From the NCBI GenBank assembly GCA_943354165.1, contig CALRBH010000001.1, forward strand, positions 80,828 to 144,827: a stretch of 64,000 nucleotides of DNA, written 5' to 3'. Below, piece by piece: positions 6,128 through 63,500 of the stretch. The position numbers and the translations under genes are program-made. The notes under the pieces were generated by a model. The model did not search any database. It worked only from the letters and a program-made list of their open reading frames with translations, and was not told the origin of the DNA. This DNA is from Candidatus Uhrbacteria bacterium RIFOXYB12_FULL_58_10 (GTDB lineage Bacteria; Patescibacteriota; Patescibacteriia; UBA9934; GWF2-40-263). Positions within the stretch are counted from its first letter, which is position 1. Each line of letters starts with the position of its first letter.

Positions 6128-6528
6128 GGGGCTGATCGGCTTCGCCGGCAGCCTGTTTCCGTCTAAGCAAGCCGAGGGTGTACTGAACCTCGTAAATCCT
6201 CTGTGCAAAGAAGTCATTTGCCAACCTCTTCTCACAAGTGAAGAGCGCGATCGCTTCGGCGTTCCGCGTTCCGACACTTGCCATGGTTACCGCCTAAGGG
6301 CTTGTAACCCATCCGTCCTGCTGGTTCGTAAGCGGGGTCGCGGGTGTTATATCTACGGACTCTCCTTGATGGACTACCGGTCTTCAGCAAGGGAATTGGC
6401 GGCCGGTCCGTCTGCAGGTATTTCGTTCTGTTTGACCCTGCAGCCGCGTAAATCTAACAGAACTTCGCTTGGAGAAAGGATTGGGGACAGTTGACCAGAC
6501 GGGGGTTCGATTCCCCCCAGCTCCACCA
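6128..6528 (+). ncRNA. ssrA: tmRNA (ssrA)
   Basis: 5' GGGGCTG pairs with 3' CAGCTCC-A-CCA (G3:U70-like wobble); 3' tRNA-like T-arm GGGGGTTCGATTCCCCC; adjacent to smpB; the tag ORF cannot be delineated confidently by eye (candidate in-frame stops at 6295 and 6459). Confidence 0.88.
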
Positions 6529-18424: not shown

Positions 18425-19975
18425 ATGAGCGTTATGTTGGACCTGCAGGCGATGTATGGCCTTACGGAGGAGCGGTCAAAGGGATTGATGGTGGTGCTCG
18501 CCATCTCGTTTGTTGTTCTCATCGGCTCCATGTCGTTTCTTTCGCCGGTAGCGGTGGTGGCCGGGGTGATTGGCGTTCTGCTGCTCGCTCTCACGATTGT
18601 GCGACCGCTCTGGACGCTGAGCCTACTCGCCCTCTACCTTCCGTTCGAGCCGTTTCTGCTCAAGTTTGCGCCGGACGAAGTGTATACGTTTGCCCGGTTC
18701 GGTTCCGAAGGACTCATCTATATTCTTGGGGGGCTCGTGATCGCGCGTATCCTCATGGGGCGTACGTCGAACGTTCAGACGCCTATCAGTCTTCCGTTCG
18801 TCCTGTTCTGCGTTGTTCTCGGCGCGTCCGCGCTTATCAATGCCGTGCCTCCGAGCATCGCCGTACTCGGCATCAGACAGATCATCAGGTTCATCCTGGT
18901 ATTCTTTATCGTCGTACAGCTCGCGCCGTCCAAGTCTTACATTTCAAAACTGACGATCGCACTGTTTGGGATTGCGGCGTTCGAAAGTTTGCTGGCGTTC
19001 GCCCAGCTCGTCATTGGTGCGCCGCTCGACACATTCCTCCTGCCGTCGGACACGCGCGCGATCGGCGACGTTGCCGTTACGGCCGGGACGACCCAGTTCT
19101 GGGACCCGGGCTCGCGCACGTTCGGGACGCTCGGTCGGTATGATCGGCTCGGAAACTTTCTGTTCATGATGCTGTTGTTCGGCGTCGGCTTCCTCACGCA
19201 GCAGGGGAAGCGCGCGATCTCTTTGTCCCGTAATCAACTTCTTTGGCTGTTCGCCCTCGGGTTACCTGCGCTCCTCATGACGTTCTCGCGCGCATCTTGG
19301 TTCGCCTTTCTCTTCGGCTTCCTTTTCATCATGGTGGTGCTGCTGCGCGATAAACGCGTGATGGCGGCGTTCGGGATTTGTGGGGTCCTTGCGGGAGCGT
19401 ACGTGGGATTGTCCGGGCTTAATGTACGGTTCATTACGGAAGCGCCGGGGCAGACCCTCATCGAGCGGTTTTACGAAACGTTCAGCTATGCGCGATGGCG
19501 CGGGGAATATTACGGACTCGGCCGCGTGTTTTGGTTCGTGCAAACCGTGTCAGTTGTCGTCCCCGCTGCGCCGATCTTTGGCTGGGGGCCTGGGCAGTAC
19601 GGGGCAGGGGCCGCGACCACGCTCGTGAATACGCGCGTGTATGACGCGCTCGGCTTGCCGTTCGGGGTCTATGGAACCGATGGGTATATCGATAACAACT
19701 GGTTCTCCTTATGGGGGGAAGCCGGAACGCTCGGACTCGCGTTTTTCCTCTGGATGTACATCGGACTATTTGTGTACGTATGGCGAGGATATCGCCGGAG
19801 TTCCGATGGGTTCACACGCGGGTTGTGCGCGGGGTATCTCGCCCTGCAAATCGGCGTCGCGTTCGCGGCGTTCCTTGCGACATCGTTCGAGACAAGAACG
19901 GTCGGGTACTACTTGTGGATGTATGCCGGGTTCCTCGTGGTGCTGCTTGAGCGTGAACGTCGTACGCCCGTATGA
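18425..19975 (+). CDS. O-antigen ligase / Wzy-type polymerase family membrane protein
   Basis: ~12 TM helices, large periplasmic loop containing the TFSRASW signature of the Wzy_C/O-antigen ligase family. Confidence 0.72.
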   Translation: MSVMLDLQAMYGLTEERSKGLMVVLAISFVVLIGSMSFLSPVAVVAGVIGVLLLALTIVRPLWTLSLLALYLPFEPFLLKFAPDEVYTFARFGSEGLIYILGGLVIARILMGRTSNVQTPISLPFVLFCVVLGASALINAVPPSIAVLGIRQIIRFILVFFIVVQLAPSKSYISKLTIALFGIAAFESLLAFAQLVIGAPLDTFLLPSDTRAIGDVAVTAGTTQFWDPGSRTFGTLGRYDRLGNFLFMMLLFGVGFLTQQGKRAISLSRNQLLWLFALGLPALLMTFSRASWFAFLFGFLFIMVVLLRDKRVMAAFGICGVLAGAYVGLSGLNVRFITEAPGQTLIERFYETFSYARWRGEYYGLGRVFWFVQTVSVVVPAAPIFGWGPGQYGAGAATTLVNTRVYDALGLPFGVYGTDGYIDNNWFSLWGEAGTLGLAFFLWMYIGLFVYVWRGYRRSSDGFTRGLCAGYLALQIGVAFAAFLATSFETRTVGYYLWMYAGFLVVLLERERRTPV

Positions 19976-21198
19976 CCGTCCTTCAAGCGCATAAATTTTA
20001 TTTTCCACGCGGCGGGGCGGAGACGTATCTCTTCGCGCTGTCCGAATATTTAGCGTCGCGCGGGTCAACGGTCGTTCCGTTCGCGATGCAACATCCGGGG
20101 AATCGGCAAACTCCATATTCGCACTATTTCCCTCGGTTCGTTCCTACGGAAAAAGTGAAGATGTCGCCGGCGGGATTGCGTACCGTAGGCCGGATGTTTT
20201 ATAGCTTCGAATCTAAGCGCCAGATGGAGCGATTGTTACGGGACGTCCCCATCGACGTCGCCCATATCCATAATCTGTACACGCAGCTGTCCCCATCGAT
20301 CCTTACTCCGCTCCGGAAGAGAAAGATTCCGACGGTGATGACGGTGCATGATTATCACCTGGTGACTCCGCACTATGCACTTCCGCTTGCCGGGCAGGCC
20401 GTGGACGTTTCTCGTGTGGGAGCATTGCGCGCGGCGCAGACGAAGTTTCATAAGGACTCAATGGCCGCAAGTTTTCTGCAAGCCGCATCTTATCGATTCA
20501 CCCGCCGCTGGAGATTTTATGATCGTGCCATTTCGCTCTTCATCGCTCCGAGTGAATTCATGGCGGCAAAACTGCGCGCGTCCGGATATGACAAGGATCG
20601 CATTCGCGTAATCCATTACGGCATCGACACGCGGACGATCGAACCTCGGTTCGGACACGATGGATATTTTCTGTTCGTCGGAAGGCTCTCGGAAGAGAAG
20701 GGGGTCGATACGGTGCTTGAGCTTGCGCATCGACTTCCGGATCTAAAGTTTAAGATTGTCGGGACCGGGCCAGATGAGGCGTTATTGCACTCCGTTGGCG
20801 ATCGACTTCCGAACGTCGAGTTCATGGGATACCAGCAAGGCCAGCGGTTGCGGGATCTGTACCTTGGTGCCCGGGCGGTATTAGTGCCTTCCAGGTGGGA
20901 GGAGCCTTCCGGTCTGGTTTTGCTTGAGGCCCAGGCCTGTGGAAAACCTGTGATTGCGAGCCATGCCGGTGGCATCCCGGAGGCCATGGAAGACCGCAGG
21001 AGCGGGTTTCTGGTCCCACCGCTTGATATCCACGCCTGGACCGAGGCCGTGCTGCGCCTCGCCTATGACGACCGGTCACGCGAAAAGATGGGCAGGGACG
21101 CCAGAACCCTTATGGAAGACCGGTTTTCGCTCAGGGCCCATTACGAGGCTGTGGAGCATGTTTATGCTGAGGCAATACGATTAGGGGGTAGTGCGTAG
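19972..21198 (+). CDS. glycosyltransferase family 4
   Basis: GT-B; C-terminal EPSGLVLLEAQACGKPVIASHAGGIPE (E-x7-E region). Confidence 0.85.
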   Translation: MTVLQAHKFYFPRGGAETYLFALSEYLASRGSTVVPFAMQHPGNRQTPYSHYFPRFVPTEKVKMSPAGLRTVGRMFYSFESKRQMERLLRDVPIDVAHIHNLYTQLSPSILTPLRKRKIPTVMTVHDYHLVTPHYALPLAGQAVDVSRVGALRAAQTKFHKDSMAASFLQAASYRFTRRWRFYDRAISLFIAPSEFMAAKLRASGYDKDRIRVIHYGIDTRTIEPRFGHDGYFLFVGRLSEEKGVDTVLELAHRLPDLKFKIVGTGPDEALLHSVGDRLPNVEFMGYQQGQRLRDLYLGARAVLVPSRWEEPSGLVLLEAQACGKPVIASHAGGIPEAMEDRRSGFLVPPLDIHAWTEAVLRLAYDDRSREKMGRDARTLMEDRFSLRAHYEAVEHVYAEAIRLGGSA

Positions 21199-21212
21199 TG
21201 TGTAGGGGGTAG
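21183..21212. repeat. stop-codon-rich GTAG motif GTAGTGCGTAGTGTGTAGGGGGTAGG overlapping the stop of the GT4 gene
   Basis: TAG in all three frames; shares the GCGTAGTGTGTA 12-mer with 33424..33448. Confidence 0.55.
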
Positions 21213-21253
21213 GAAAAAAGGGCTCTATTTAGCTAAATAACTGTTGAAATGGC

Positions 21254-21282
21254 TTGACAAAAAGCCATTTTTTTGCTATTCT
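21254..21282 (+). promoter_or_regulatory. promoter TTGACA-N17-TATTCT; the -35 is embedded in the hairpin AAATGGCTT/AAGCCATTT; -10 lies 8 nt from the ATG (leaderless)
   Basis: Hexamers and spacing read directly. Confidence 0.45.
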
Positions 21283-21290
21283 GCGCAGTT

Positions 21291-22463
21291 ATGAAAATCG
21301 CCATGATCGGATCAAAGGGGATTCCCGCCGCCTCCGGAGGAGTGGAGCGGCACGTGGAAGAGCTCTCAACGGAGCTCGTAAAGCTGGGACATGATGTCCT
21401 GGTGTATTCTCGTGCTTGGTATACGGGCGTAAACAAGCCTCGTTTTTCGCATCGCGGGGTGACCTGCGTTTCCGTTCCGTCATTGCGTACGAAGCACTTC
21501 GATTCCATTACTCATACGTTTGCCTCCATTGTGGCAGCGGCTCGTGAAGGGGTGGACGTGTTCCATATCCACGGCGTCGGTCCCGCTTTGCTTTCTTGGC
21601 TTCCTAAGCTGTTGCTTCCGTCCGCCAAGGTGGTTGTGACCTTCCATTGCATTGATCGCCATCATGAGAAATGGGGATGGATTGCCCGCTTCATGCTCCG
21701 CACCGGCGAATGGGCCGCAGTCCGTTTTCCGGACGCGACCATCGCGGTTGCAAAGTCTCTTCAGGATTACTTGCGCCTCACCTATGCCACCCACACCATG
21801 CATGTGCCTAACGGTACCCGCATGCCGGAGGGGGAAGGGGACGCGACCAAGCTCTCAAAGTTTGGACTTGAAAAGGGAAAGTATCTGATGTTCTGCGCCC
21901 GCCTCGTCCGTCACAAGGGGGCCCATGTTCTCGTGGAAGCCTGGAAGCTTCTTTGTAAGGAGCGTCCGGACCTCACGGACGGAATGAAGCTTGCGATTGT
22001 CGGAGGCTCGGCGTTTACGGACGGGTATGTCCGCGAACTCACGGAGCTTGCGAAGGGCGATGAGTCCATCGTTCTCACTGGTGCCCAGCATGGCGAGGAC
22101 CTGCATGCGCTCTTCAGCCATGCGTACGCCTTCGCCCATCCATCGTCTTCTGAAGGGTTGCCGATCTCGGTCCTCGAAGCGATGTCCTACGGCAAGTGCG
22201 TGGTCGCCGCAGACATTCCGGAATCGCGCGAAGTCGTGGAAGGCCACGGTCTCACCTTCAAGGTGGGGAACGTGGAAGACCTTGCCCGCAAACTCGCGAT
22301 GGTGATTGAAAGCCCGGACCTCGCCGCCTCCGTCGGGTATGACGCCCGCGACTTCGTGGCGCGACAGTACGACTGGGACAACATTGCCGAGACCACCAGC
22401 TACCTGTATGAGGCGCTCCAGTTCGAGCCTCGCGTACAGGTCCGGCCAGTTGCCGGGCGATAG
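21291..22463 (+). CDS. glycosyltransferase family 4
   Basis: MKIAMIGSKGIPAASGGVERHVEEL N-terminus; GT-B C-domain with EGLPISVLEAMSYGKCVVAADIPE. Confidence 0.85.
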   Translation: MKIAMIGSKGIPAASGGVERHVEELSTELVKLGHDVLVYSRAWYTGVNKPRFSHRGVTCVSVPSLRTKHFDSITHTFASIVAAAREGVDVFHIHGVGPALLSWLPKLLLPSAKVVVTFHCIDRHHEKWGWIARFMLRTGEWAAVRFPDATIAVAKSLQDYLRLTYATHTMHVPNGTRMPEGEGDATKLSKFGLEKGKYLMFCARLVRHKGAHVLVEAWKLLCKERPDLTDGMKLAIVGGSAFTDGYVRELTELAKGDESIVLTGAQHGEDLHALFSHAYAFAHPSSSEGLPISVLEAMSYGKCVVAADIPESREVVEGHGLTFKVGNVEDLARKLAMVIESPDLAASVGYDARDFVARQYDWDNIAETTSYLYEALQFEPRVQVRPVAGR

Positions 22464-22466
22464 CCG

Positions 22467-22500
22467 AAAACACCCCCGCAGTTGCGGGGGTGTTTTACGT
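22467..22500 (+). terminator. rho-independent terminator
   Basis: AAAACACCCCCGC-agtt-GCGGGGGTGTTTT. Confidence 0.7.
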
Positions 22501-22504
22501 GGTA

Positions 22505-22816
22505 TTATGTCGGCTGCATCCCCGTATCAGGAGGAGGTTCGATGTTGATGGATTTGGGGTTTGGGGAGAACAGTTTGTTCTTGATCTTCCATTGATCTAC
22601 GTACTGACCGATGCCACCTTTGTCCCGCTTATTGCGCACCGTGGTGGTGTGCTGGGACCACTTGAGAAGTGACTCGAAATTGATCTTGTAGCGCCCCTGG
22701 ACCACCACATAGCTCACCGCCCCATCGGTAATGGCCCGGCGTACCGTGCGCTGGGAAATCCCAAACAAACGGGCGGCTTCGGACACGGAAAGGCGGATGA
22801 GGGGGTTGAGAGACAT
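22505..22816 (-). CDS. helix-turn-helix DNA-binding protein (excisionase/MerR-like HTH_17 type)
   Basis: Start taken at MSLNPLIRLSVSEAARLFGISQRTVRRAI (HTH); the track ORF extends to 22900 through the CCCTTACC repeat. Confidence 0.55.
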   Translation of the reverse strand: MSLNPLIRLSVSEAARLFGISQRTVRRAITDGAVSYVVVQGRYKINFESLLKWSQHTTTVRNKRDKGGIGQYVDQWKIKNKLFSPNPKSINIEPPPDTGMQPT

Positions 22817-22829
22817 AGGGTCTTTGTGG

Positions 22830-22868
22830 GGCTGTAAAGGCAGTAAGGGCTGTAAAGGCGGTAAGGGG
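22830..22868. repeat. tandem GGTAAGG/CCTTACC-type repeat upstream of the HTH gene
   Basis: GGCTGTAAAGGCAGTAAGGGCTGTAAAGGCGGTAAGGGG; related units at 30361..30405 and 63395..63500. Confidence 0.5.
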
Positions 22869-22946
22869 ATGAGGTTGTTTGGATACACCAGTGTAGCCAA
22901 ACAGAAGGACTTTCGTCAATCAAGGCTTGATAAAAATCACGATTTC

Positions 22947-22960
22947 GGCTAAGGTTAGCC
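22947..22960. promoter_or_regulatory. perfect palindrome GGCTAAggTTAGCC in the divergent HTH / ECF-sigma intergenic region (candidate operator)
   Basis: 6-2-6 inverted repeat read directly. Confidence 0.35.
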
Positions 22961-23003
22961 ATCGCTAAATATACATGTAAGACTTTGTCTTTTTCTGCAT
23001 CAT

Positions 23004-23546
23004 GTGTCGAAGCAACTAGATCAATTCCTTATTTCTCGGATCCGGGCGTTCCGCGACGAAAGCGCGTTCGAACGGATCATGGCAGATCATCATAAAGCTT
23101 TGCTTCGATTCCTTGAGTTTCGTCTGCCCTCTAAAGCCGATGCAGATGATGCCCTTTCCATCACCATGTTACGGACGTGGAACTATCTCACATCCGGGAC
23201 GCATGTAGAGCACTTGCCAGGACTCATTTATACCATTGCGCGTTCTGTGGTTGCAGAGTTCTACCGCTCGCGTCGATCAACGGTGTCTACTGATCTCTTG
23301 GAAGAAAGCGGAGTGATCATTCCGGATACGCAGCACACAAAGGGTGCCATGGAGGCACGAGTGGATGTTCAGTTCCTCGAAGAGAAGCTCAAAGAGCTTT
23401 CCGAAGAAGATCGAGATCTGATCGTGATGAAACACTTCGAACAATTGAGCACTCAAGAAATTGCGGACCGACTAGAAAAATCTGTAACAGCCACAAGCGT
23501 TGCCCTCCACCGCGCGTTAAAGAAACTCAGGGGGCTTATCGAATAG
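23004..23546 (+). CDS. ECF-type RNA polymerase sigma-70 family factor
   Basis: Region 2 (DDALSITMLRTWNYL...) and region 4 HTH (LSTQEIADRLEKSVTATSVALHRALKKLR). Confidence 0.8.
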   Translation: MSKQLDQFLISRIRAFRDESAFERIMADHHKALLRFLEFRLPSKADADDALSITMLRTWNYLTSGTHVEHLPGLIYTIARSVVAEFYRSRRSTVSTDLLEESGVIIPDTQHTKGAMEARVDVQFLEEKLKELSEEDRDLIVMKHFEQLSTQEIADRLEKSVTATSVALHRALKKLRGLIE

Positions 23547-23550
23547 AGAT

Positions 23551-24693
23551 ATGACGGAGCGCGAACTCATTAAACTTTTGAACAAAGCAAAAGACCTCCC
23601 CCAATTTGGCGGAGGGTTTGATGCATCTGTTGAGACACCAAAAATGTGGGCGCGGATTGCCGGAGAACTCGGTTTTGATCCTGTCATGAAACACCGCGTC
23701 TACACCTGGCAGGAGTGGGCGCAATTTTACGTTCATAAATTCGGCGGCATGTTCCGCCACTCGTTCGCTTACGGACTTTCCGTATTCGCCCTCATGTTCG
23801 GCGGATGGGTTGCCACTGTTAACGCTTCGTTTGATTCCGTGCCAGGCGACACGCTTTATCCGGTGAAGCTCGCTACGGAGAAAATGCAGATCACGCTCGC
23901 AACGTCCACGGAGCGCCGCGCTAAGCTCCACACGGAGTTTGCTGGACGGCGCCTGCAGGAAGTGAACGAGATTTCCGTGTCCGATCGCGGCGACAAGGAC
24001 GCACGCATTAAGGAAGCCGTCGCCTCCTTTAAGACGGAGCTCGCCTCCGCTGGAGACCAGCTCGCGGTTCTCACGGATGGAAATTCAACAGAGGTGGCTG
24101 CTGTTGCCGCCGCCATTGAACAGAAAACAAACGAGTACGCTTCCACGCTCACCCAGGCTGAACTCGGAGATAACTCCAAGGATGATGTGGACTCTGCAAA
24201 GGAAGATGTAGAACGTACGGATGCCCAGGCCATCGATGCTCTCGTCGTCGTTCATGAGTCGGATACAGCTGAACCTTCGCGCGAGGCGCTTGAACGCTCC
24301 TTCCGTCAGGACTTCCAGAGTGTAAAGGACCGCTTGTCCCTCTCGCTCGGCCGGCTCTCCACGGTAGAACGCGTGCTTACCAACCTCGGTCGGATCGAAG
24401 CCTCGGAATACCGCGGACGCATCAACAAGGCCAGGGAAGTGATTGTGGGTCACGATCGCACTCTGGGCGGGTCTCAAGACTACGCTGCCGCCGGCGGATA
24501 TCGCCGCGCGTTTGACCTCCTGCGGATCGTCTCAACGGACGTGAAAGTTTCCGAAGAAATTATTGCCGCGTTGGAAATCGAGATTACGACGTCGGTTGCG
24601 ACGCAGGAGGAAGTAGCTGATGCCACGGACGGCAACCCCACCTCACCTCCCCTTGGCGAAGGGGAGGAACGAGTTCAACCCGCATCGTTTTAA
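23551..24693 (+). CDS. DUF5667-like membrane-anchored protein, putative anti-sigma factor
   Basis: Immediately follows the ECF sigma gene; short cytoplasmic N-terminus, one TM (LSVFALMFGGWVATV), extracytoplasmic helical domain. Confidence 0.5.
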   Translation: MTERELIKLLNKAKDLPQFGGGFDASVETPKMWARIAGELGFDPVMKHRVYTWQEWAQFYVHKFGGMFRHSFAYGLSVFALMFGGWVATVNASFDSVPGDTLYPVKLATEKMQITLATSTERRAKLHTEFAGRRLQEVNEISVSDRGDKDARIKEAVASFKTELASAGDQLAVLTDGNSTEVAAVAAAIEQKTNEYASTLTQAELGDNSKDDVDSAKEDVERTDAQAIDALVVVHESDTAEPSREALERSFRQDFQSVKDRLSLSLGRLSTVERVLTNLGRIEASEYRGRINKAREVIVGHDRTLGGSQDYAAAGGYRRAFDLLRIVSTDVKVSEEIIAALEIEITTSVATQEEVADATDGNPTSPPLGEGEERVQPASF

Positions 24694-24897
24694 AAACTGC
24701 ATCGGGCCCCGTGCTTATCTCCTCACGTGAGTAGGGAGATGAGCTCGGGGAAATCACCCGATAGCCCCGCAGCTAGTTGATGCAACGCAAGGTCGACCAC
24801 GTGTAAAAAACGTGGATGCATCAGCCTCCCGAGATCCGGGTTACCGGATCCGGCACTACAAAGGTTCACCTGGCTTACGCCAGGTATCTACTAAGCT
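24694..24897 (+). promoter_or_regulatory. long structured 5' leader of the giant surface-protein gene
   Basis: Multiple hairpins (CATCTCC...GGGAGATG; CACGTG-taaaaaa-CGTGG; CCGGATCCGG; CCTGGC-ttac-GCCAGG) within ~200 nt before the ATG. Confidence 0.45.
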
Positions 24898-27800
24898 ATG
24901 ACTGATTCTTTGCGAATCGGAAAGCGCGCTCTCACTGTGGCCGTTGCCGCCGTGACCATTCTTTGGTCCGTTGGCTTCTCCGCATTTGTGGCTCCGATGA
25001 CTGCTTCGGCAGCATCGTCTGGTGACGTTATTCGCGGCACCACGCTTTCCACCCTTTACTACCTCGCTTCAAACGGACAGCGCTACGCATTCCCTAACGA
25101 AAAGACTTACAAGTCTTGGTACGCAGACTTCTCGGGCGTTCAGACTCTTTCTGATTCCGCTCTTGCTGCGATCCCACTCGCTGGGAACATTGTGTACCGC
25201 CCAGGAGCTCGCTGGATTAAAATCCAGTCTGATCCTAAGACCTACGCCGTGACTCCACAGGGTCAGATCCGCTGGATCGAAACTGAGGCAGTTGCTGTCG
25301 GTCTTGCCGGTGCTAACTGGAACACATTCATCGATGACGTTTCGGATGTGTTCTTCGTTGACTACTCGGTAGGCGCTTCTCTCGCTTCGGCTGCCAACGG
25401 TTATTCTGGCATGCTCGTTGAAGAGGCTGGCAAGAACTGGCTTCTTTCGAGCAACCAGAAGCGTGAGGTTACCTCCGCTGGTTTCTCGGGCAACCGTTTC
25501 CAGACGCGCCATGTCCTCTCCGGTGACGGTGTAAACCTCGCTGGGATGACTGTGGGTGCTATGGTCACGGGTGCAGAAGCAGGTCTTACGGACACCGCAC
25601 AGCTCGGTGCAGCAGTGACAGGTGGTCTTTCCATCTCGCTCGCTTCTGACACCCCAGCTTCGACGACGGTTCCAGGCGGCGCTGACTCCGTTGAGTTCAC
25701 CAAGTTCAAGCTTGTTGCAAACTCCGGTTCAGCAACCATCAACCAGATCGTTGTGAGCCTCGGCGGCGTTGGGGCGACCAGCAACATCGACAACGTGTAC
25801 CTCTACAAGGGGAGCACACGTCTTACCGATGGTCGCTCGGTCAACTCGACTACGCGCAAGGCGACCTTCACAGGTCTCAACATCGCTCTCGCTGCCGGTG
25901 ACATCGTGTACCTCTCGGTACGCGCTGATACCAACGCAGCCGCAGGCGGTGGCGACACAGCTAACTTCTCCATCGCTGCTTCCGGCGATGTGACTGGCAC
26001 TGCTACGGTCTCTGGGAACTTCCCAATTTCTGGGAACACCATGAGTTTCTCCGATCAGAACGCCGGTACCATCACGGTAAGCAAGAACGCCACCATCACC
26101 GACCCAACGGTTGGCCAGGAGAATGCCGTGATTGGTAAGTTTAAAGTTGAAGCCGCTACGGAAGACGCTTCGCTTAAGCAGATTACCCTCAACATCGATG
26201 ATGCTGGCGACCACTCCAACTTCAAACTTTGGAAGGGTTCCACGCAGCTCGCTACGGGGACATCTGACGGCGAACTCGTCACCTTCGTGCTCACTAACCC
26301 ACTGCTCGTAGCAGAGGGCGACTCCGAAAACCTTCAGGTTTCGGCTGACATCGGTGGCGAGAAGGACGACGACATCAAAGTCGCGATTGAAGCTGAAGCA
26401 GACGTCGTTGCCATCGGTGGCGATTTCGGCTTCAACATGTCCACTGTCATCACTCTTTACGATGACGAAGGCGGCGCTTGTGTGGACGGAACAACAACTG
26501 GCTGTTCGTTCTCAGAAGTCCTTGGTGGTGAACTTACGTTCGCTTTCAACGGTCCAGCTGCAGACGACATTCAGATCGACGGCGATGACGTTGTGCTCTT
26601 GAAGTTCTCCATCACTTCGGAAGAAGCGGTTGAGATCAAGACGCTGAAGGTCACCGTCGCATGTTCCACTGGTGCGGAATGTGATAACGACAACAACGAC
26701 GAAGGCGGTCTCATTAACGACGTAACTGGCGCAGACAGCCCAGATACGCTCAATCTTGAGAACATCACTATTCGTAAGTCCGACGGTTCCGCTTGGATGG
26801 GTCCTGAGGAGCTCTCAGCCGCTGGCTCTGACGCAACTCAGACTCTTTCCTTCACGGACAACCAGAACATGACGGCCGGGCAGACGCTCGACCTTATGGT
26901 CACTGCAGACGTCGACAACGTTGATGGTCTCAGCGATGACAAGTACCGCGCTACATTGGAGCTTGGTACCGCTGGTGATGTTGAGGCAGAGGATGCAAAT
27001 GGCGACGATCTCGCCCTCGGCGACATCGTTCCAGGTACTGATCTCGTAGGAAACGAGATGACTGCAACCAACTCCTCCCTCTCGGTGCAGGTTTCGACTC
27101 CACCATCCTCTGGTACCTTCGTTAAGGGCCTCCAGAACGTGGCTGTGCTCGGCCTTGCCTTTGAGGCTGGGGATGCATCTGACGTAAAGGTCACCGACCT
27201 TGTGCTCAATGCTGATCTCGACACCACTGTCGGCGGCGGCGTTACCAGCACGGACTTGGTCCGCGATTCTGTGAACTCCTGCTCGCTTTACGACAGCCAG
27301 TCTGGAGCCCTTATTGCTGGCCCAGAGTCCTTCGACGCCGCTAATGAAGAAGCTTCGTTCGACAACTTCTCCTGGACCGTATCGGCCGGAGAAACCGAAA
27401 AGATGATCGTGAAGTGTAACTTCGCGAACGTTGATTCCAACGATGCTGACGATGATGAATACAACTTCTTCATCGACACCATTGGTACTGACATCACCGC
27501 AGAAGATACAGACGGCGATGACGTTGATCCAACAGCAGGTGCTGCTGGCCTCAACGAAGCCGTAGAAACAGTGGTCATCACGATCACGAACGCAGGCACC
27601 TTGATCATTAGTCTCGACGGTTCCACCGCTGCTTCGAACATCATCCTTGGTGCTTCGACCGGTGTGGCCATGTCGAAGTTTAAGTTCGAGGCAGGGGACG
27701 AGTCCTTCCTCGTGAAGGAACTTACCCTGGACAACTGTGTCACGCTCGTTGCAGACGCCGATGGCGACTGTGCAGACGGCGGTGAAGCCCTTGGTGCTGA

Positions 27801-28740
27801 TGACATCGCATCTGCGGTGAAACTCAGCTACCAGAACGAGGCAGGCGCTACGGTCACCAAGACCGGCTTCCTCTCGGGTAACACCATGAACGTCTCCGGC
27901 CTGGACTTCTTTATCCCATCCGGTACGACTCGTGTGCTCACCGTCACGATTGATACCAACGCGGTATCTTCCGTCGGTGCAGACTCCGGTACTCTTATTC
28001 AGCTCAACTTCAATGCCGAGGCCTCGGGTACGGCAACCTTCGAAGCTGTTGGATCTGGTTCCGGTGAAACGCTTACTGAAGTTGAGATTGATGCCGCCAA
28101 CTCTGGCGAATACATCGTTACGAACGACATGGTCGTTCGTAAGACAAAGCCAACGATCTCGCTCGCTTCGGGAAGCCCAAGCGGTGCAAGCATTCCTGGT
28201 CTCTCAGAAGTCCTTCGCTTCAACGTCGCTGCGGATTCCCGTGGCTTCGTGACCCTCGACGCAGTGACCTTCAAGGTAACCACGACCGATGGCGCTGCAA
28301 GCGGTTGGGCAGACTGTGATGACGCCTCGTTCGCAGTTGCAACGGGTTGGGAACTCTTCGACAACGACGATTCATCGGATAAACTCGATGACGCCGCTGA
28401 TTGGACCTTCCGAGATGGCGCAGGCGCTAACGTCTGTGGCGCCGGTGTTCCTCTCAAGTTCGTTGAACTTGACTTCGAAGGCGCTGCAACTCACCCAGCT
28501 GAAGAAATCGGTGCAGGTACAACGAAGACGTACGTTCTCCGCGTTGACACCACTGGTGCCGACTCAGCTGACGACGATTCGATCCGCATCGACATTCCAG
28601 ATGAGGCAGAAATCGATGCCGTTGTTGGCATGACTGCTATCCCATCTGCGATTCGTTGGGATGACGACGTGGAAGGCGACGACATCAACGGTGATCTTGT
28701 CAAGAACCTTTCCGTCACTGGCGGCACACTCGTTTACTAA
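24898..28740 (+). CDS. giant (1280 aa) secreted surface/S-layer-like protein with repeated Ig-like beta domains
   Basis: Signal peptide ...PMTASAAS; acidic, Thr/Ser/Gly/Asp-rich; recurring LYKGSTRLTDG / LWKGSTQLATG modules; no LPXTG. Confidence 0.7.
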   Translation: MTDSLRIGKRALTVAVAAVTILWSVGFSAFVAPMTASAASSGDVIRGTTLSTLYYLASNGQRYAFPNEKTYKSWYADFSGVQTLSDSALAAIPLAGNIVYRPGARWIKIQSDPKTYAVTPQGQIRWIETEAVAVGLAGANWNTFIDDVSDVFFVDYSVGASLASAANGYSGMLVEEAGKNWLLSSNQKREVTSAGFSGNRFQTRHVLSGDGVNLAGMTVGAMVTGAEAGLTDTAQLGAAVTGGLSISLASDTPASTTVPGGADSVEFTKFKLVANSGSATINQIVVSLGGVGATSNIDNVYLYKGSTRLTDGRSVNSTTRKATFTGLNIALAAGDIVYLSVRADTNAAAGGGDTANFSIAASGDVTGTATVSGNFPISGNTMSFSDQNAGTITVSKNATITDPTVGQENAVIGKFKVEAATEDASLKQITLNIDDAGDHSNFKLWKGSTQLATGTSDGELVTFVLTNPLLVAEGDSENLQVSADIGGEKDDDIKVAIEAEADVVAIGGDFGFNMSTVITLYDDEGGACVDGTTTGCSFSEVLGGELTFAFNGPAADDIQIDGDDVVLLKFSITSEEAVEIKTLKVTVACSTGAECDNDNNDEGGLINDVTGADSPDTLNLENITIRKSDGSAWMGPEELSAAGSDATQTLSFTDNQNMTAGQTLDLMVTADVDNVDGLSDDKYRATLELGTAGDVEAEDANGDDLALGDIVPGTDLVGNEMTATNSSLSVQVSTPPSSGTFVKGLQNVAVLGLAFEAGDASDVKVTDLVLNADLDTTVGGGVTSTDLVRDSVNSCSLYDSQSGALIAGPESFDAANEEASFDNFSWTVSAGETEKMIVKCNFANVDSNDADDDEYNFFIDTIGTDITAEDTDGDDVDPTAGAAGLNEAVETVVITITNAGTLIISLDGSTAASNIILGASTGVAMSKFKFEAGDESFLVKELTLDNCVTLVADADGDCADGGEALGADDIASAVKLSYQNEAGATVTKTGFLSGNTMNVSGLDFFIPSGTTRVLTVTIDTNAVSSVGADSGTLIQLNFNAEASGTATFEAVGSGSGETLTEVEIDAANSGEYIVTNDMVVRKTKPTISLASGSPSGASIPGLSEVLRFNVAADSRGFVTLDAVTFKVTTTDGAASGWADCDDASFAVATGWELFDNDDSSDKLDDAADWTFRDGAGANVCGAGVPLKFVELDFEGAATHPAEEIGAGTTKTYVLRVDTTGADSADDDSIRIDIPDEAEIDAVVGMTAIPSAIRWDDDVEGDDINGDLVKNLSVTGGTLVY

Positions 28741-28790
28741 GCCTCGGCTTAGCGAACAGTACGCCGCGCTCAGCGCGGTGGCTGCTAGAA

Positions 28791-28830
28791 GCAAACTCCC
28801 CGCCCGCAAGGGTGGGGAGTTTGTGTTTGG
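28791..28830 (+). terminator. rho-independent terminator after the surface-protein gene
   Basis: CAAACTCCCC-gcccgcaagggt-GGGGAGTTTG then TGTTTGG; stem identical to that at 30296..30322. Confidence 0.65.
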
Positions 28831-28989: not shown

Positions 28990-29235
28990 ATGGTAAAGCA
29001 AAAACTTTCAGCCAAAGTGGATCGTAAAACGATTATCCACGCCGTTGACCAACTCTCTCCAGATCGTGCGAGGATCGCGGTGGATTTTTTGGAGTTTCTC
29101 CATCAGAAAGATGCTGAATGGGATGCAACTACAGAACTCCTTTCGGATAAAAAGTTGATGAGCGATATCGCCACCGCAAGAAGGGATGTGGCAAAAGGAA
29201 TCGGACTCTCGTCTTGGCGCAAAACATCTGCGTAA
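28990..29235 (+). CDS. putative type II antitoxin (cognate of the downstream RelE/ParE toxin)
   Basis: 81 aa, small acidic protein, stop 1 nt before the toxin ATG. Confidence 0.55.
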   Translation: MVKQKLSAKVDRKTIIHAVDQLSPDRARIAVDFLEFLHQKDAEWDATTELLSDKKLMSDIATARRDVAKGIGLSSWRKTSA

Positions 29236-29236
29236 T

Positions 29237-29494
29237 ATGTTCGAGGTCCAGCTTCATATAAAAGCCAGGAAATCATATGAACGGCTTCCAAAACAGGCCG
29301 TTCTTCTTGTTGATCGCGGATTTGCTCTTCTTGAGTCGGATCCGTTTTCCGGGCCACAGATTAAACGTCTGCACGGTCCACTTGCCGGGCTATATCGTTT
29401 ACGGGCTGGAAGATATCGTATTGTTTATCAGATCATAAATGATCATCAAATAGTCGTAGTTCTTGTCATTGGCTCAAGAGAGAGTGTGTATTAA
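29237..29494 (+). CDS. type II toxin, RelE/ParE family
   Basis: ...GLYRLRAGRYRIVYQIINDHQIVVVLVIGSRESVY matches the RelE/ParE C-terminal signature; start at MFEVQ. Confidence 0.85.
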   Translation: MFEVQLHIKARKSYERLPKQAVLLVDRGFALLESDPFSGPQIKRLHGPLAGLYRLRAGRYRIVYQIINDHQIVVVLVIGSRESVY

Positions 29495-29544: not shown

Positions 29545-30288
29545 ATGATTGATCGATATCCCTGTATGTCTAAGCAGATCCGGCCGAAAACGCTTCTAAC
29601 TGCCCTTGCCGCCGTCATTGTGATTGTGGTTGGCGGGATGTGGTACGACCGCTCCACAAATCTTTCTCAGGATACGACTTCTAAGCAGATTATCGTTGAT
29701 ACCGTGGATCGCGGGATGTCGCCGGAACAGCGCGATACGTTTTATAAAAAAATTGCGGAACTTCAGGTACAGATCGCAGACGATGCCAATGAAGGCAAAC
29801 GCGATATCAGCAAAATCCTCCAGCTCGGAAACATGTTTTACACCGCCGGGGAACTCGCTCAGGCGAACGAGCAATACAAGGATATTTTGCGCACCAACCC
29901 TACGGACACTCCGGCTATGGAGAATATGGGACAGTCTCTCATGGAAATGGGGGACTATGAGGGAGCGGCCGCTCTTTGGGTGAGGTCGCTTAATATTTCT
30001 GCCAATGAGCAGATCTACATTAAACTTGTGGACCTCATTACGGAGCGTCTTCCCGCCAAGAATGCGCGCATTCAGGAGATCCTTGAATCCGCCATTGCCA
30101 ACATCGGCCAGACCCCAACGCTTCTCAAACGTCTCGCGCAGTGGTACGGGGAAAATGGAAAATACGAGGAGGCCATTTCTCATTACGAGGTCGCCCAGAA
30201 GCTGAACCTCAAGGACACCAGCATTAAGGAAGAGATAGACGCTCTGCGTCTGAAGCAGGCTCAAGCACTGCGATTACAGGAACGGTAA
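29545..30288 (+). CDS. membrane-anchored TPR-repeat protein
   Basis: N-terminal TM (LLTALAAVIVIVVGG) then 3-4 TPR-like helical repeats (YEGAAALWVRSL, YEEAISHYEVAQKL); alternative start at 29566. Confidence 0.65.
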   Translation: MIDRYPCMSKQIRPKTLLTALAAVIVIVVGGMWYDRSTNLSQDTTSKQIIVDTVDRGMSPEQRDTFYKKIAELQVQIADDANEGKRDISKILQLGNMFYTAGELAQANEQYKDILRTNPTDTPAMENMGQSLMEMGDYEGAAALWVRSLNISANEQIYIKLVDLITERLPAKNARIQEILESAIANIGQTPTLLKRLAQWYGENGKYEEAISHYEVAQKLNLKDTSIKEEIDALRLKQAQALRLQER

Positions 30289-30351: not shown

Positions 30352-32403
30352 ATGCGTCGCCTTCTTACCCTTACCGCCCTTACAGCCATTACCGCCCTTA
30401 CCACCCAACCCGCACTCGCAGCCATCCCGAACGATCCTCTCATTGAACAGCAATGGTACCTGGCCAAGGTTCAGGCATTCAACGCATGGGACCACGGGAC
30501 GGGAACGGATGACGTCGTCGTTGCGGTGCTTGATACGGGTATTGATCTTGATCATCCGGATATAAAAGAGAATCTTTGGCGTAACGAAGGAGAGGTGAAA
30601 GGCGATGGGATCGATAATGATCAGAATGGTTTTGTTGACGATACGAACGGTTGGGATTTCATTGATGGGGACAACAGTCCGACTCCTTCCGCCGTGAACG
30701 CGCCGAGCGATGACGCGGTCGTGCATGGAACCGTCATTGCCGGAGTTATCGCCGCTGTTGGAAACAACGGGGAAGGGATCGCCGGGCTCAACTGGAAGGC
30801 GAAGATCATGCCGGTCCGCATCCTGGACCAATTCGGTTCCGGGACGAGCGAGGGAGCGCGTAAGGCCATCGAATACGCCGTGGCCAATCATGCCGACGTC
30901 ATTAATTTGAGTTTTACCGGATTCGAAGTCGACGAGGTCTTTAAGGACGTGGTTCACCGCGCGTACCAGGCAGGGGTGATTGTTGTTGCGGCTGTGGGGA
31001 ATAAAAGCGGCGGGGGAGTGAACCTGGACGAGACACCCGTGTATCCGGCCTGCTTCATGGGACTCGATGGGGACTGGGTGCTCGGTGTCGCCGCGACCAC
31101 TCGTCAGGACACCAAGGCTGGATTTTCAAACTACGGTTCGACCTGTACGGACATCAGTGCACCTGGGATCGAAGTGTTTGGCACGTCTTTTCAGGATCCG
31201 ACGGTAAACGGGTTTGGCCAGGCTTATCTTGGCGGATGGGCAGGTACATCGATTGCGTCTCCGATGGTGGCTGGCGCGGCTGCGCTGCTTAAGGCCAAGT
31301 ATCCGTTCATCACGCCAACGCAGGTAAAAACTGCATTGCAGCTTTCCGTGGATCCGCTTGCGGAAGTTGGGACGCCTGCCGCGGGGAAACTCGGTGCGGG
31401 TCGGCTGAACGTTGCTCGGGCGTTTGAGGTCGCGGGACAGTTTACGTTTGGGACGTCTTTGCCGATTCCTTCAGGACCCGCACCGGCAGTTCTCCCACCC
31501 CCTCCAACTCCCCCTCCGGGAGGGGGAGGGTTCGAGTCTGTTCGGATCGTCCTTGCGGCTGGGCCGGGTGCTGCGCCTCGAGTTCAGGTTTTTGATGAAG
31601 GCGGGCATGCGTCTGCATCGTTCTTGGCGTATGCCGAGGCGTTTAAGGGCGGCGTGCGCGTTGCGGCTGGCGATGTGGATGGGGACGGCGTCATGGAAAT
31701 CATCACGGTGCCCGGGCCAGGTGGCGGTCCGCACGTGCGTATCTTCACTCTTTCTGGCACGGTGAAAGGACAGTTTTTTGCCGGGGACAAGGCTGACCGG
31801 CGCGGATTAAACGTGTCGGTTGCGGATGTGGACGGCGATTTGAAATGGGAGATTATCACCAGCACGGAAGTGGGCGGGCTTGGGGAGGTGAACGTCTTTA
31901 CCATGGACGGAACTCGGCTTTCGAGCTTCAAACCGTTTCCAGGATCCAAGGAAGCGATTCGTGCGACGGGCGTGGACGCGGATGGAGATCGGCGAGATGA
32001 GATTGCCGTAGCGCTCGGCGCCGGGGCGAAACCGGAAGTGCGATTGTTTAGTTCCACCGGTTCGCTGAAGAAGAGTTTTCTTGCATATGGGGCAGGGTTC
32101 CTTGGCGGGATCTATTTGACTGCCGCGGATCTCGATGCAGACGGCAGCGAGGAAATCGTTGCGGGAACCGGGACTGGAGGAGGACCGCAGGTGCGGACGT
32201 TCACCGGCAAGGGTGCCGTCGTGGATTCTTTCTTCGCCTTTGACGCCACGCACCGCAAAGGGGTGATGGTCGCGGGGGCGGGCACGTTCCTTGTGGCCCT
32301 TGAAGGAAGCAGCGGAGCTGTGAAGCTCCTGAATCGCAAGGGACAGACCATGGGCGGATTCGATGTCCTCCCGGGCAATTATTCATTAGCTGTCCTTGAA
32401 TAA
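30352..32403 (+). CDS. secreted subtilisin-like serine protease (S8) with C-terminal FG-GAP/VCBS-like beta-propeller repeats
   Basis: Triad motifs VLDTGIDLDHPD, HGTVIAGVIAA, GTSIASPMVAGAAALL; repeats AAGDVDGDGVMEII, TAADLDADGSEEIV; the signal peptide is encoded by the CCCTTACC repeat; TATAAT 9 nt before the ATG. Confidence 0.85.
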   Translation: MRRLLTLTALTAITALTTQPALAAIPNDPLIEQQWYLAKVQAFNAWDHGTGTDDVVVAVLDTGIDLDHPDIKENLWRNEGEVKGDGIDNDQNGFVDDTNGWDFIDGDNSPTPSAVNAPSDDAVVHGTVIAGVIAAVGNNGEGIAGLNWKAKIMPVRILDQFGSGTSEGARKAIEYAVANHADVINLSFTGFEVDEVFKDVVHRAYQAGVIVVAAVGNKSGGGVNLDETPVYPACFMGLDGDWVLGVAATTRQDTKAGFSNYGSTCTDISAPGIEVFGTSFQDPTVNGFGQAYLGGWAGTSIASPMVAGAAALLKAKYPFITPTQVKTALQLSVDPLAEVGTPAAGKLGAGRLNVARAFEVAGQFTFGTSLPIPSGPAPAVLPPPPTPPPGGGGFESVRIVLAAGPGAAPRVQVFDEGGHASASFLAYAEAFKGGVRVAAGDVDGDGVMEIITVPGPGGGPHVRIFTLSGTVKGQFFAGDKADRRGLNVSVADVDGDLKWEIITSTEVGGLGEVNVFTMDGTRLSSFKPFPGSKEAIRATGVDADGDRRDEIAVALGAGAKPEVRLFSSTGSLKKSFLAYGAGFLGGIYLTAADLDADGSEEIVAGTGTGGGPQVRTFTGKGAVVDSFFAFDATHRKGVMVAGAGTFLVALEGSSGAVKLLNRKGQTMGGFDVLPGNYSLAVLE

Positions 32404-62439: not shown

Positions 62440-63399
62440 ATGAAGCTCTCGCCTATTGCGATCTTGGTTGCAATTTGCGTGAGCCTCGCCGCTCTTGCGG
62501 TTTGGGCCATGCCTCAAGTGGAGCCGCGCTGGGGCGTGACGTTTTCCACCAAGTATTCTCGCGAGCTCGGGTTGAATCCGGAAACCGTGTTTTGGGAGGT
62601 GGTGAACGACCTGAACGTCCGTGCAATCCGGTTGCCCGTGTATTGGGATGAGGTGAATCCACAATTCGACGTTTGGAATTGGCAGCCGTACGACCATCTG
62701 GTTGAAATGGCCGATGAGAAGGGGGTCGCCCTCACGCTTGCGGTGGGAATGAAGACGCCGCGCTGGCCGGAATGCCATGTTCCAGAATGGGCCGCCTCCA
62801 TTTCCTCCATCGATTCATTCGACAAGCAGCGATCCGCCTACATCGATGCGGTTATTAAACGATACGACGGACACGTCTCCGTGGAGCGGTATCAGATCGA
62901 GAATGAGCCGTTGTTTCCGTTTGGTGAGTGTCCGGGTTCCAGCATCGAGCGGCTGGAAGAAGAAGTGCATCGTGCGAGGCTTGTGACGACGAAGCCAATA
63001 CAAATCACGGCGAGCGGAGAATTCGAGCTCTGGAGCCGTGTGGCCCCTCTTGTCGATGTCCTTGGCGTTTCCCTTTATCGCATTTCCTGGAACGATGCAT
63101 ACGGTTTTTTTCGCTATCCCATTCCCGCCGCGTATTACCGATTACGGGCTATGGGTATCCAGCGTCCGGTTATTATTTCCGAGCTTCAGGCCGAGCCGTG
63201 GTTTCCCGTCTCCATTGAGAGTCACCCCGCCTCTTATTGGGCGCAGCTGTTCACGTCCAATGATTTCCGCGACCAGGTCCGCTTTGCCCGCCGGACCGGA
63301 TTGTCCGAAGCGTATCTTTGGGGGGTGGAGTGGTGGTACTATTTGCGTGCTCACGGATATCCAGAGCTTTGGGACGCTGCGCGTCCTCTTTGGCGGTAA
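62440..63399 (+). CDS. secreted TIM-barrel glycoside hydrolase (GH5/GH113/PslG-like)
   Basis: Signal/TM anchor; conserved ENEP (acid/base) and SELQAEPW (nucleophile) typical of clan GH-A. Confidence 0.55.
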   Translation: MKLSPIAILVAICVSLAALAVWAMPQVEPRWGVTFSTKYSRELGLNPETVFWEVVNDLNVRAIRLPVYWDEVNPQFDVWNWQPYDHLVEMADEKGVALTLAVGMKTPRWPECHVPEWAASISSIDSFDKQRSAYIDAVIKRYDGHVSVERYQIENEPLFPFGECPGSSIERLEEEVHRARLVTTKPIQITASGEFELWSRVAPLVDVLGVSLYRISWNDAYGFFRYPIPAAYYRLRAMGIQRPVIISELQAEPWFPVSIESHPASYWAQLFTSNDFRDQVRFARRTGLSEAYLWGVEWWYYLRAHGYPELWDAARPLWR

Positions 63400-63500
63400 G
63401 GGCGGTTAGGGTTGTAAGGGGAGTAAGGGATTTTCCTTTCGCTCTATTCGTTCTGTCGCCCTTACCGTCCATTACCACCCTTACAACCCTTACCACCCAA
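63395..63500. repeat. inverted repeat of GGTAAGGG/CCCTTACC units (G-quadruplex-capable left arm) between the GH gene stop and the next gene
   Basis: GGTAAGGGCGGTTAGGGTTGTAAGGGGAGTAAGGG ... CCCTTACCGTCCATTACCACCCTTACAACCCTTACCACCCAAC; shares CCCTTACCACCCAAC with 30391..30405. Confidence 0.55.

Follow-up and report, generated by a model that had tools for sequence, protein, structure and literature searches.

A conserved RNA motif before a giant surface-protein gene in a sigma factor/DUF5667 module of Candidatus Uhrbacteria and related Patescibacteria

A 64-kb stretch of DNA (hereafter, the window) from a genome of Candidatus Uhrbacteria, which belongs to the candidate phyla radiation (CPR; Patescibacteria), was analyzed around a group of four genes. 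CPR bacteria are ultra-small and uncultured and are thought to live mostly attached to other cells; to our knowledge, the composition and regulation of their envelopes are largely unknown. The group comprises a helix-turn-helix (HTH) gene on the minus strand and, divergent from it, the genes for an extracytoplasmic function (ECF) sigma factor, a DUF5667 membrane protein, and an acidic secreted protein of 1280 residues (the big protein and big gene below). A structured spacer separates the DUF5667 gene from the big gene. As judged from comparison with relatives, the core of this spacer is a new conserved RNA motif, composed of a helix (P1), a bulge containing the box AAnGUCGA, and a hairpin (P2). 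The genes and the features of the spacer are as follows.

22505–22816, minus strand: DNA-binding protein of the HTH_17/excisionase family, 103 aa (Pfam, NCBIfam, and homolog alignments)
23004–23546, plus strand: ECF-type sigma factor, 180 aa, GTG start, regions 2 and 4 only (Pfam and NCBIfam)
23551–24693, plus strand: DUF5667 single-pass membrane protein, 380 aa, candidate anti-sigma factor (PF18915, E 7e-11)
24694–24897, plus strand: structured spacer or leader RNA, 204 nt (folding)
24707–24750, plus strand: hairpin H1, directly after the DUF5667 stop codon and lacking a U-tract (inverted repeat with 16-nt arms, 88% complementary)
24776–24825, plus strand: conserved RNA motif with P1, bulge, and P2 (covariation in relatives, covariance model, and position)
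24829–24885, plus strand: hairpin H3 (24829–24853), Shine–Dalgarno-like AAAGG (24860–24864), and hairpin H4 (24868–24885), before the ATG (minimum free energy (MFE) structure)
24898–28740, plus strand: secreted acidic protein, 1280 aa, with a signal peptide, an N-terminal alpha/beta domain, and an Ig-like chain (homologs, AlphaFold2 (AF2), and Foldseek)
28793–28829, plus strand: intrinsic terminator with a 13-bp stem (28793–28822), a GCAA loop, and a T-rich tail (sequence and terminator scan)

The positions that an earlier note on this DNA had given for the four genes, the structured spacer, and the terminator were found to be correct by open reading frame (ORF) listing, domain scans, and folding. 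The group was then compared with 80 related loci, which were obtained by scanning one genome per species and onto which the window proteins were mapped by tblastn. One arrangement was found throughout, with the HTH_17 gene on the minus strand followed by the sigma gene, the DUF5667 gene, and the big gene of approximately 1280 codons. The HTH gene was present at 72 loci, the sigma gene at 75, and the DUF5667 gene at 77, in constant order and strand, and the loci without a match to one of these genes were contigs that ended too early. Thus, what the earlier note had read as a circuit in one genome is a true conserved module. The median identities to the window proteins were 68% for the HTH protein, 42% for the big protein, 35% for the sigma factor, and 32% for the DUF5667 protein. 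The four-gene module was also kept in distant Patescibacteria, in which the DUF5667 homologs were approximately 20% identical and the modules adjoined genes for GT4 glycosyltransferases and Wzy_C proteins. The locus is best explained as a cell-envelope module that spans the lineage of Candidatus Uhrbacteria and related Patescibacteria. Taken singly, its components are of known kinds: a sigma factor of the ECF group coupled to a membrane protein, an autoregulator of the HTH type, and a surface-protein gene with a structured leader in front of it. The fixed combination of these genes, the DUF5667 partner without a recognizable anti-sigma domain, and the RNA motif appear to be undescribed, and no relevant literature was found in searches on DUF5667, on an S-layer or RNA motif in Uhrbacteria, on ECF sigma factors in Patescibacteria, or on the box sequence.

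The window spacer folded with an MFE of −94.4 kcal/mol (z = −7.45), and none of 200 shuffled sequences folded as well. For the orthologous spacers (median length of 185 nt), the median z was −4.35 (n = 76), with 74 values below −2, which confirmed the structured leader with hairpins that had been proposed from the window alone. The box AAnGUCGA was present in every orthologous spacer, and thermodynamic folding with only the box held unpaired gave the same fold in 72 of 78 spacers. In the common architecture, an 8–11-bp P1 carries a 5′ bulge formed by a 1–5-nt linker and the box, P2 follows directly after the box, and the 3′ strand of P1 follows directly after P2. The corresponding parts in the window are P1 (24776–24784 paired with 24817–24825), the linker ACGC, the box AAGGTCGA (24789–24796), and the P2 hairpin (24797–24815). 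In 23 gap-free sequences aligned in a fixed register, 89.8% of the cells were paired and all 14 pairs changed on both sides, with a covariation score of 0.741, compared with 0.251 for shuffles and at most 0.18 when the partners were slid. Because these sequences were selected for a common geometry, pairs close to the junction are favored; each of the outer P1 pairs nevertheless occurred as four to six pair types. The result was similar for 62 distinct sequences aligned to the model, with 89.7% paired and a score of 0.661 versus 0.196 for shuffles.

The motif was also specific to this position. A covariance model (CM) search over 1.2 Mb returned 65 matches in this leader, one per locus, and one marginal match (E 0.92) elsewhere. 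An exact-pattern scan of metagenomes retrieved 26 places, of which 16 lay between homologs of the DUF5667 and big genes; these scored 31–56 bits over the full length, except for L092 (local, 23.5 bits). The ten matches outside the module were unrelated, being mostly in coding sequence and mostly local, with 23–30 bits, and were discarded. Insertions of 100–150 nt were observed in P2 of L018, L028, and L068, and these are long closed helices themselves. As P2 tolerates such insertions with the helix closed, the motif fits an RNA rather than a promoter. No Rfam 15 family matched the window leader at E ≤ 10, and none matched eight related leaders at E ≤ 1; at the gathering thresholds, only a transfer-messenger RNA (tmRNA) and a tRNA matched in the window. 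Upstream of the motif, H1 and H2 were structurally conserved in at least one clade. Downstream of it, AAAGGTTC followed by a hairpin was found in the window and in L069, L010, L068, and L074, while most relatives carried GAAAGGA 11–13 nt before the ATG. The AAAGG before the ATG of the big gene would serve as its Shine–Dalgarno sequence.

Several other readings of the box were tried and rejected. A Shine–Dalgarno or standby site was discarded as the main explanation, as the GG varies (AAAAGUCGA, AACGUCGA) and GUCGA is fixed. A hammerhead-like reading (CUGA ... GGCC GCAA GGCC) lacked the GAAA and stem III and had no Rfam match, and no conserved complement that could form a pseudoknot with the box was found within 150 nt on either side. 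The other copies of AAGGTCGA in the window (12869, 12890, 26888, and 39608) lie in coding sequence and are chance matches. Two variations were noted among the relatives. In L032, L040, L050, L053, L054, and L077, the bulge holds an additional hairpin (e.g., GGAGAGCCCGCTCTCT) immediately 5′ of the box. In a related clade, H1 holds TCGACCT, which is complementary to the box, and an alternative pairing is possible there.

Promoters for the big gene were sought using the ECF-type promoter of the relatives, acTGTAAT-N16-aCGACTa, which ends 7 nt before the sigma ATG and whose exact core was present at 41 of 73 loci. It resembles the SigX-type consensus TGTAAC-N17-CGAC, and its position suggests a leaderless or very short-leader sigma mRNA. 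A position weight matrix (PWM) built from the 41 exact sites was scanned over both strands of the 80 loci and the window (1.3 Mb), with a reporting threshold of 12. All matches above 17, with scores of up to 31, were upstream of the sigma gene, either directly before it or as a second copy in some clades, set back by another 143–365 nt to a place close to or within the HTH 5′ end. The strongest match elsewhere (16.7) was in L075 on the strand opposite the RNA box; it was the only such minus-strand match, and the P2 insertions exclude a promoter spanning the motif, so that the box or its reverse complement was rejected as an ECF −10 element. In the last 200 nt of the DUF5667 gene and the spacer, taken over 78 loci, no ECF promoter was found, with a median best score of −3.4 and a maximum of 7.1. 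The median best score was 20.1 upstream of the sigma gene and −2.3 in size-matched control windows inside the big gene.

These scores speak against the claim of the earlier note that the regulators drive the surface-protein gene, if a dedicated ECF promoter is meant. In this explanation, the sigma factor freed from DUF5667 would activate a promoter in the spacer, and the RNA of approximately 200 nt would be the 5′ untranslated region (UTR) of a monocistronic big-gene mRNA. It draws on the fixed adjacency of the sigma, DUF5667, and big genes and on the established knowledge that ECF sigma factors commonly control adjacent envelope genes, but we consider it improbable, as this promoter type was absent before the big gene at all 78 loci and the hairpins start at the DUF5667 stop codon, which leaves little unstructured DNA. 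An ECF sigma gene beside a surface-protein gene thus need not mean a dedicated ECF promoter before the latter, and a natural assumption about such loci is corrected.

Strict intrinsic terminators were found in 4 of 78 spacers, compared with 37 of 63 loci within 150 nt after the big gene; these genomes therefore use canonical terminators but rarely place them in the spacer. The strong terminator that had been described after the big gene in the window was confirmed, with its 13-bp stem and T-rich tail. The same comparison weakens the proposal that the spacer hairpins, either H1 and H2 or P1–P2 with a following pyrimidine tract, act as a partial terminator or attenuator that sets read-through, with alternative pairings answering a signal. 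Loose criteria did yield a hairpin with a T-rich tail in 39 of 78 spacers, and this hairpin was often the motif with CTCTATTCTT or TCCTTCTT behind it. Some bases of H1 also belong to H2 in the window and one clade, and the H1 of one clade contains the anti-box TCGACCT. However, a U-tract is missing behind the motif in the window and the L002 clade, the anti-box is specific to its clade, and strict features were confined to the four spacers. We regard an attenuator as very improbable.

A separate housekeeping promoter is harder to dismiss. A sigma-70-type scan of the spacers gave weak sites only, at scattered distances from the RNA motif and none at a fixed distance from P1. The big gene could nevertheless have its own unrecognized promoter, in the spacer or at the 3′ end of the DUF5667 gene. 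The regulators would then sense or adjust the envelope, for example through the glycosyltransferases or the S8 protease encoded nearby, without transcribing the big gene, and the motif would be a 5′-UTR stabilizer, a riboswitch, or an autogenous protein site. An A/T-rich element (cTTATTAA, CACTTCTAA, or TGTTAAC), which is a possible −10, often lies 1–10 nt upstream of P1. Helices at the 5′ end are classic stabilizers of mRNA, long structured leaders are typical of S-layer genes, and genes of the GT4, Wzy_C, and S8 kinds often lie nearby. On the other side, no consistent −35/−10 pair stands at a fixed distance from P1, and the A/T-rich element pairs 3′ of P1 in L012, L070, and L073, extending the helix, and is therefore transcribed there. 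H1 and H2, which lie upstream of the element, are also conserved as hairpins. This explanation is, in our view, unlikely, but it deserves to be kept in mind. As the spacer lacks an ECF promoter and a consistent sigma-70 promoter and is almost without canonical terminators, read-through from the upstream genes is the simplest reading, and control of the big gene by the sigma factor, if any, most likely operates through operon read-through.

The sigma factor consists of regions sigma-2 and sigma-4 alone, and its 180 residues fall in the range expected for ECF (group IV) sigma-70 factors (~170–200). It matched Sigma70_r4_2 (46.8 bits), Sigma70_r4 (35.8 bits), and, at the borderline, Sigma70_r2 (23.8 bits, cutoff of 24) in Pfam, and TIGR02937 with 68 bits (cutoff of 42.9). 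With respect to the autoregulatory promoter with an AAC-type −35 and a CGT/CGA-type −10 that is expected of an ECF sigma gene, the exact core is found at the 41 loci mentioned above and the window copy is degenerate and below the threshold; this sigma factor may recognize the promoter. The DUF5667 gene begins 4 nt past the sigma stop codon in the window, and the two genes overlap by 4 nt in 16 of 31 scorable loci; the pair is, on this spacing, translationally coupled. DUF5667 always follows the sigma gene, including in distant relatives, and its 82 homologs are all Patescibacteria proteins with PF18915 only. The AF2 model (pLDDT of 89.4) consists of two short N-terminal helices, a long membrane helix (residues 53–93), and a long helical bundle outside, with the single hydrophobic helix at approximately 74–97, and it had no fold match in the PDB at E < 0.001. 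DUF5667 has the position of an anti-sigma factor, being directly downstream of an ECF sigma gene, coupled to it, and a single-pass membrane protein, and is a candidate for this role.

The autoregulated sigma/anti-sigma pairs SigX–RsiX and SigW–RsiW of Bacillus subtilis are alike in combining a two-domain sigma factor with a coupled downstream single-pass membrane protein and in having a TGTAAC-N16/17-CGAC-type promoter directly upstream of the sigma gene, as in most relatives here. Unlike RsiX and RsiW, the partner here has no recognizable anti-sigma domain and carries the DUF5667 helical ectodomain. Moreover, the promoter here runs up to the start codon, it is lacking before the adjacent gene that is the candidate target, and the module invariably includes a divergent HTH_17 regulator.

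The divergent control region was examined by aligning the HTH–sigma intergenic regions of the relatives, in which four conserved elements were identified: a palindrome, a GTCAA box, a sigma-70-like promoter, and the ECF-type promoter. The features of this region in the window are as follows.

22829–22866, minus strand: 9-nt tandem repeat array of the CCCTTACNG type in the HTH 5′ region (repeat search)
22876–22903, no strand: conserved palindrome, consensus tTTGTCtACaCtAGtGTAGnCAAA (inverted repeat with 13-nt arms, 92% complementary)
22890–22919, minus strand: sigma-70-like HTH promoter, TTGACG-18-TACACT (promoter scan, consensus match only)
22927–22955, plus strand: putative sigma-70-like promoter for the sigma operon, TTGATA-17-TAAGGT (read from the sequence)
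22947–22960, no strand: perfect palindrome GGCTAAGGTTAGCC (sequence)
22976–23001, plus strand: ECF-type promoter in degenerate form, TGTAAG-N16-CATC, ending 2 nt from the GTG of the sigma gene (comparison with relatives; below the PWM threshold of 12)

The palindrome tTTGTCtACaCtAGtGTAGnCAAA was found in 62 of 73 relatives, approximately 110 nt upstream of the sigma start, and is likely to be the operator of the HTH protein. In the window, it overlaps the −10 element of the HTH promoter, whose −35 element (TTGAC, minus strand) is the conserved GTCAA box of the relatives. With the −10 element inside the palindrome, the layout is the classic one of an autoregulated repressor, and the HTH protein would bind to the palindrome. 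At the place of the sigma-70-like promoter of the sigma operon, the relatives carry cTTGATTTTTTGGCTAAAGTAAGCTACAAT. The perfect palindrome GGCTAAGGTTAGCC of the earlier note is indeed present; an operator role for it is disfavored, as the sequence overlaps the −10 element of the sigma-70-like promoter and the palindrome conserved in the lineage is the one at 22876–22903. The CCCTTACC repeat of the earlier note likewise exists, as the 9-nt tandem repeat at 22829–22866, but it is not part of the module, being genome-specific, dispersed, and absent from the divergent regions of the relatives.

In the window, the CCCTTACNG repeat recurs at 30360–30401 (plus strand), 63396–63428 (minus strand), and 63462–63493 (plus strand), with 12 matches against 0.78 expected. 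The arrays sit at the 5′ ends of three genes: the one at 30360–30401 encodes the hydrophobic core of the signal peptide of the S8 protease (LTLTALTAITALTT), and the two within 63396–63493 face each other across an intergenic region. Other short tandem repeats occur in the same intergenic regions of relatives, for example, L006, L023, L024, L041, L060, and L078. In L032, L044, L050, L053, L054, L072, and L077, the conserved palindrome is missing and a second copy of the ECF-type promoter lies beside the HTH start codon, accompanied in this clade by the inverted repeat GCGAACCTTAGC/GCTAAGGTTCG. In L024, L035, L036, L039, L042, L058, L059, and L060, an antisense ECF-type motif lies inside the HTH coding region (codons I-V-V ... 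K-I-T); it may be there by chance or mark an antisense promoter.

The HTH protein is the best conserved of the module (median identity of 68% over 72 loci). Its ORF (22505–22900, minus strand) allows 131 residues from a TTG at 22900 or 103 from the ATG at 22816; the shorter form was favored, as homolog alignments begin at residues 25–35 of the long ORF. It matched Pfam HTH_17 (PF12728, E 2.4e-9, 37.7 bits, cutoff of 27) and TIGR01764 (33.7 bits, cutoff of 28.8). The HTH_17 winged-helix domain is shared with small proteins of the excisionase family, such as Xis and the recombination directionality factor RdfS, and RdfS (PDB 8DGL) was the nearest solved sequence (E 0.052). In contrast to excisionase genes, the HTH gene is chromosomal and syntenic throughout the lineage, and a 22-bp palindrome overlies its promoter. 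No integrase was found in the gene tables of the related loci L107–L109, and the neighbors of the HTH gene in the window encode glycosyltransferases. The synteny, the lack of an integrase in these tables, and the palindrome at its own promoter argue that the protein behaves as a transcription regulator and not as an excisionase.

The big protein has a pI of 4.05, is rich in A, G, T, D, S, and V, and has a signal-peptide-like N-terminus, which agrees with the earlier description of it as acidic and fits secretion. No Pfam or NCBIfam family matched it, searched as a whole and as four fragments, and no relative was found among PDB sequences; SLH, CWB2, SLAP, and other known S-layer domains were absent in the same Pfam and NCBIfam searches. 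Of its 358 homologs, the full-length ones (40–67% identity) were all from Candidatus Uhrbacteria or Patescibacteria. The AF2 model (mean pLDDT of 86.3 for residues 1–1200) consists of a signal-anchor helix, a novel alpha/beta domain at approximately 44–235, and a continuous chain of beta-sandwiches, and Foldseek against the PDB retrieved generic Ig-like chains only (PrgB, integrin legs, and alpha-2-macroglobulin). The Ig-repeat architecture seen in the sequence was thus borne out. The best Foldseek match (E 6e-17) was to the beta-sandwich chain of Enterococcus PrgB (PDB 8BEG), from which the big protein differs in having approximately 10% sequence identity, global TM-scores of 0.1–0.2, a different unannotated N-terminal domain, and no LPXTG or other known anchor.

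The N-terminal domain had 4111 cluster representatives (50% identity), of which 946 reached E ≤ 1e-30. The domain was seen at N- or C-termini and in tandem. Further extracellular proteins have its first ~130 residues at one end or the other, and the proteins sharing this module carry S8 protease, GDSL lipase with fn3, DUF3048, Big_5, or PG_binding_1 domains. As it recurs at the ends of such varied extracellular proteins, it is probably a mobile anchoring or binding module. The part encoded by 25009–25632 (residues 38–245) is an unannotated, widespread extracellular domain and a candidate for a new domain family.

An S-layer role of the big protein may be proposed by analogy. S-layer genes typically have long structured leaders that stabilize the mRNA, for example, slpA of Lactobacillus and of Thermus. 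The big gene is like them in encoding a large acidic secreted protein behind a folded leader of 100–300 nt and in having a strong terminator, and it differs in that its leader follows two regulator genes, has no recognizable promoter, and carries a bulge motif conserved in sequence. The locus offers a lineage-wide candidate for the main surface protein, one whose N-terminal module recurs in thousands of extracellular proteins.

In the model that we prefer, which we hold tentatively and rate at slightly less than an even chance, the sigma, DUF5667, and big genes form an operon, DUF5667 is the partner of the sigma factor, the HTH protein is an autoregulator, and the spacer motif acts after transcription. 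The three genes would be carried on one transcript from promoters upstream of the sigma gene, one of housekeeping type and one of ECF type under autoregulation. DUF5667 would be a membrane-bound, anti-sigma-like partner linking an extracytoplasmic signal to sigma activity, and autoregulation of the sigma gene would therefore, through read-through, also increase transcription of the big gene. The palindrome would be the site at which the HTH protein controls its own gene, and this protein may also adjust the sigma promoter that faces the other way. The intercistronic motif would uncouple the output of the big gene from that of the regulators; it would most likely be a recognition site for a protein or ribonuclease, after which the helices would shield the big-gene mRNA at its 5′ end or determine how well it is translated. 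The big protein would be an envelope-anchored surface layer or adhesin, with the N-terminal domain as its anchoring module.

Such an arrangement resembles known intercistronic processing and stabilizer elements. The cggR–gapA transcript of B. subtilis is cleaved by RNase Y, and processing of papBA in Escherichia coli likewise sets differential expression within an operon. Both share with the present module a folded element placed downstream of regulator genes with low expression and upstream of a gene for which high expression is expected, and neither a terminator nor a promoter separates these genes. The module differs from them in that its motif has no counterpart in Rfam 15 and that processing is only proposed.

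A number of observations weigh against this model. Co-transcription was deduced from the absence of recognizable promoters and terminators, and promoters of CPR bacteria may be atypical. Read-through would place a presumably abundant surface protein and its regulators on a single transcript. The window's own ECF-type promoter is degenerate (TGTAAG-N16-CATC), and DUF5667 has no zf-HC2, RskA, or similar anti-sigma domain in Pfam, NCBIfam, or fold searches, including a search of residues 1–70 at E ≤ 10. A pyrimidine-rich tract (CTCTATTCTT) follows the motif in approximately one-third of the clades and could make a weak attenuator of it instead. Finally, the window copy of the motif was weak when the whole 64 kb was searched (CMs R1 and R2, 9.8–10.4 bits, E 2–3) and was found among generic hairpins. 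This copy has a divergent P2 (CCACGU/ACGUGG with a 7-nt loop). Within its own spacer, it was the top match (E 0.0064), and it was accepted on account of this value, its position, its exact box, and its geometry.

A broader claim would be that P1, AAnGUCGA, and P2 define a new class of cis-regulatory RNA, limited to Uhrbacteria-like CPR bacteria, that serves as a protein or ligand site or a processing signal and controls the giant surface protein as the post-transcriptional arm of the HTH/ECF sigma/DUF5667 circuit, and that DUF5667 is a new type of anti-sigma factor. Taken as a whole, this claim is speculative and rather doubtful. A short RNA motif with strong covariation that is absent from Rfam is nevertheless directly testable, and the compact regulatory cassette gives the first strong lead from genomic context to the function of DUF5667.

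The surroundings of the module were also inspected. Two GT4 glycosyltransferase genes lie directly upstream of it (19972–22463) and are kept in 38–43 of the 80 loci, and Wzy_C polymerase/ligase-like genes flank the module in the distant relatives L107–L109. These neighbors suggest a wider gene neighborhood for surface glycans and surface proteins. The glycosyltransferase and HTH genes converge on a bidirectional terminator, the hairpin AAAACACCCCCGCAGTTGCGGGGGTGTTTT at 22466–22497; weak Rfam matches to Leu_leader arose from this hairpin and were dismissed as meaningless. The region 30352–32403, downstream of the big gene, encodes an S8 subtilase whose C-terminal part carries FG-GAP repeats, and 62 of the 80 loci have a homolog no more than 7 kb from the big gene. 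S8 proteases elsewhere are fused to the N-terminal module of the big protein (P0317), which hints at a functional link between the protease and the big protein, such as processing or co-anchoring. A TPR protein (29545–30288) has a homolog near the big gene in 44 of the 80 loci. Between the big gene and the TPR gene, the window holds a ParE-family toxin (PF05016, E 1.5e-9) preceded by an overlapping small antitoxin-like ORF with a weak DUF2281 match (28990–29494). Both proteins were missing from all 80 related loci, and the pair, being present only in the genome of the window, looks like a recent insertion. At the beginning of the window, a tRNA-Asp gene lies at 1537–1614, and a tmRNA gene (105 bits) that was not reported by ARAGORN was found by Rfam at 6128–6528.

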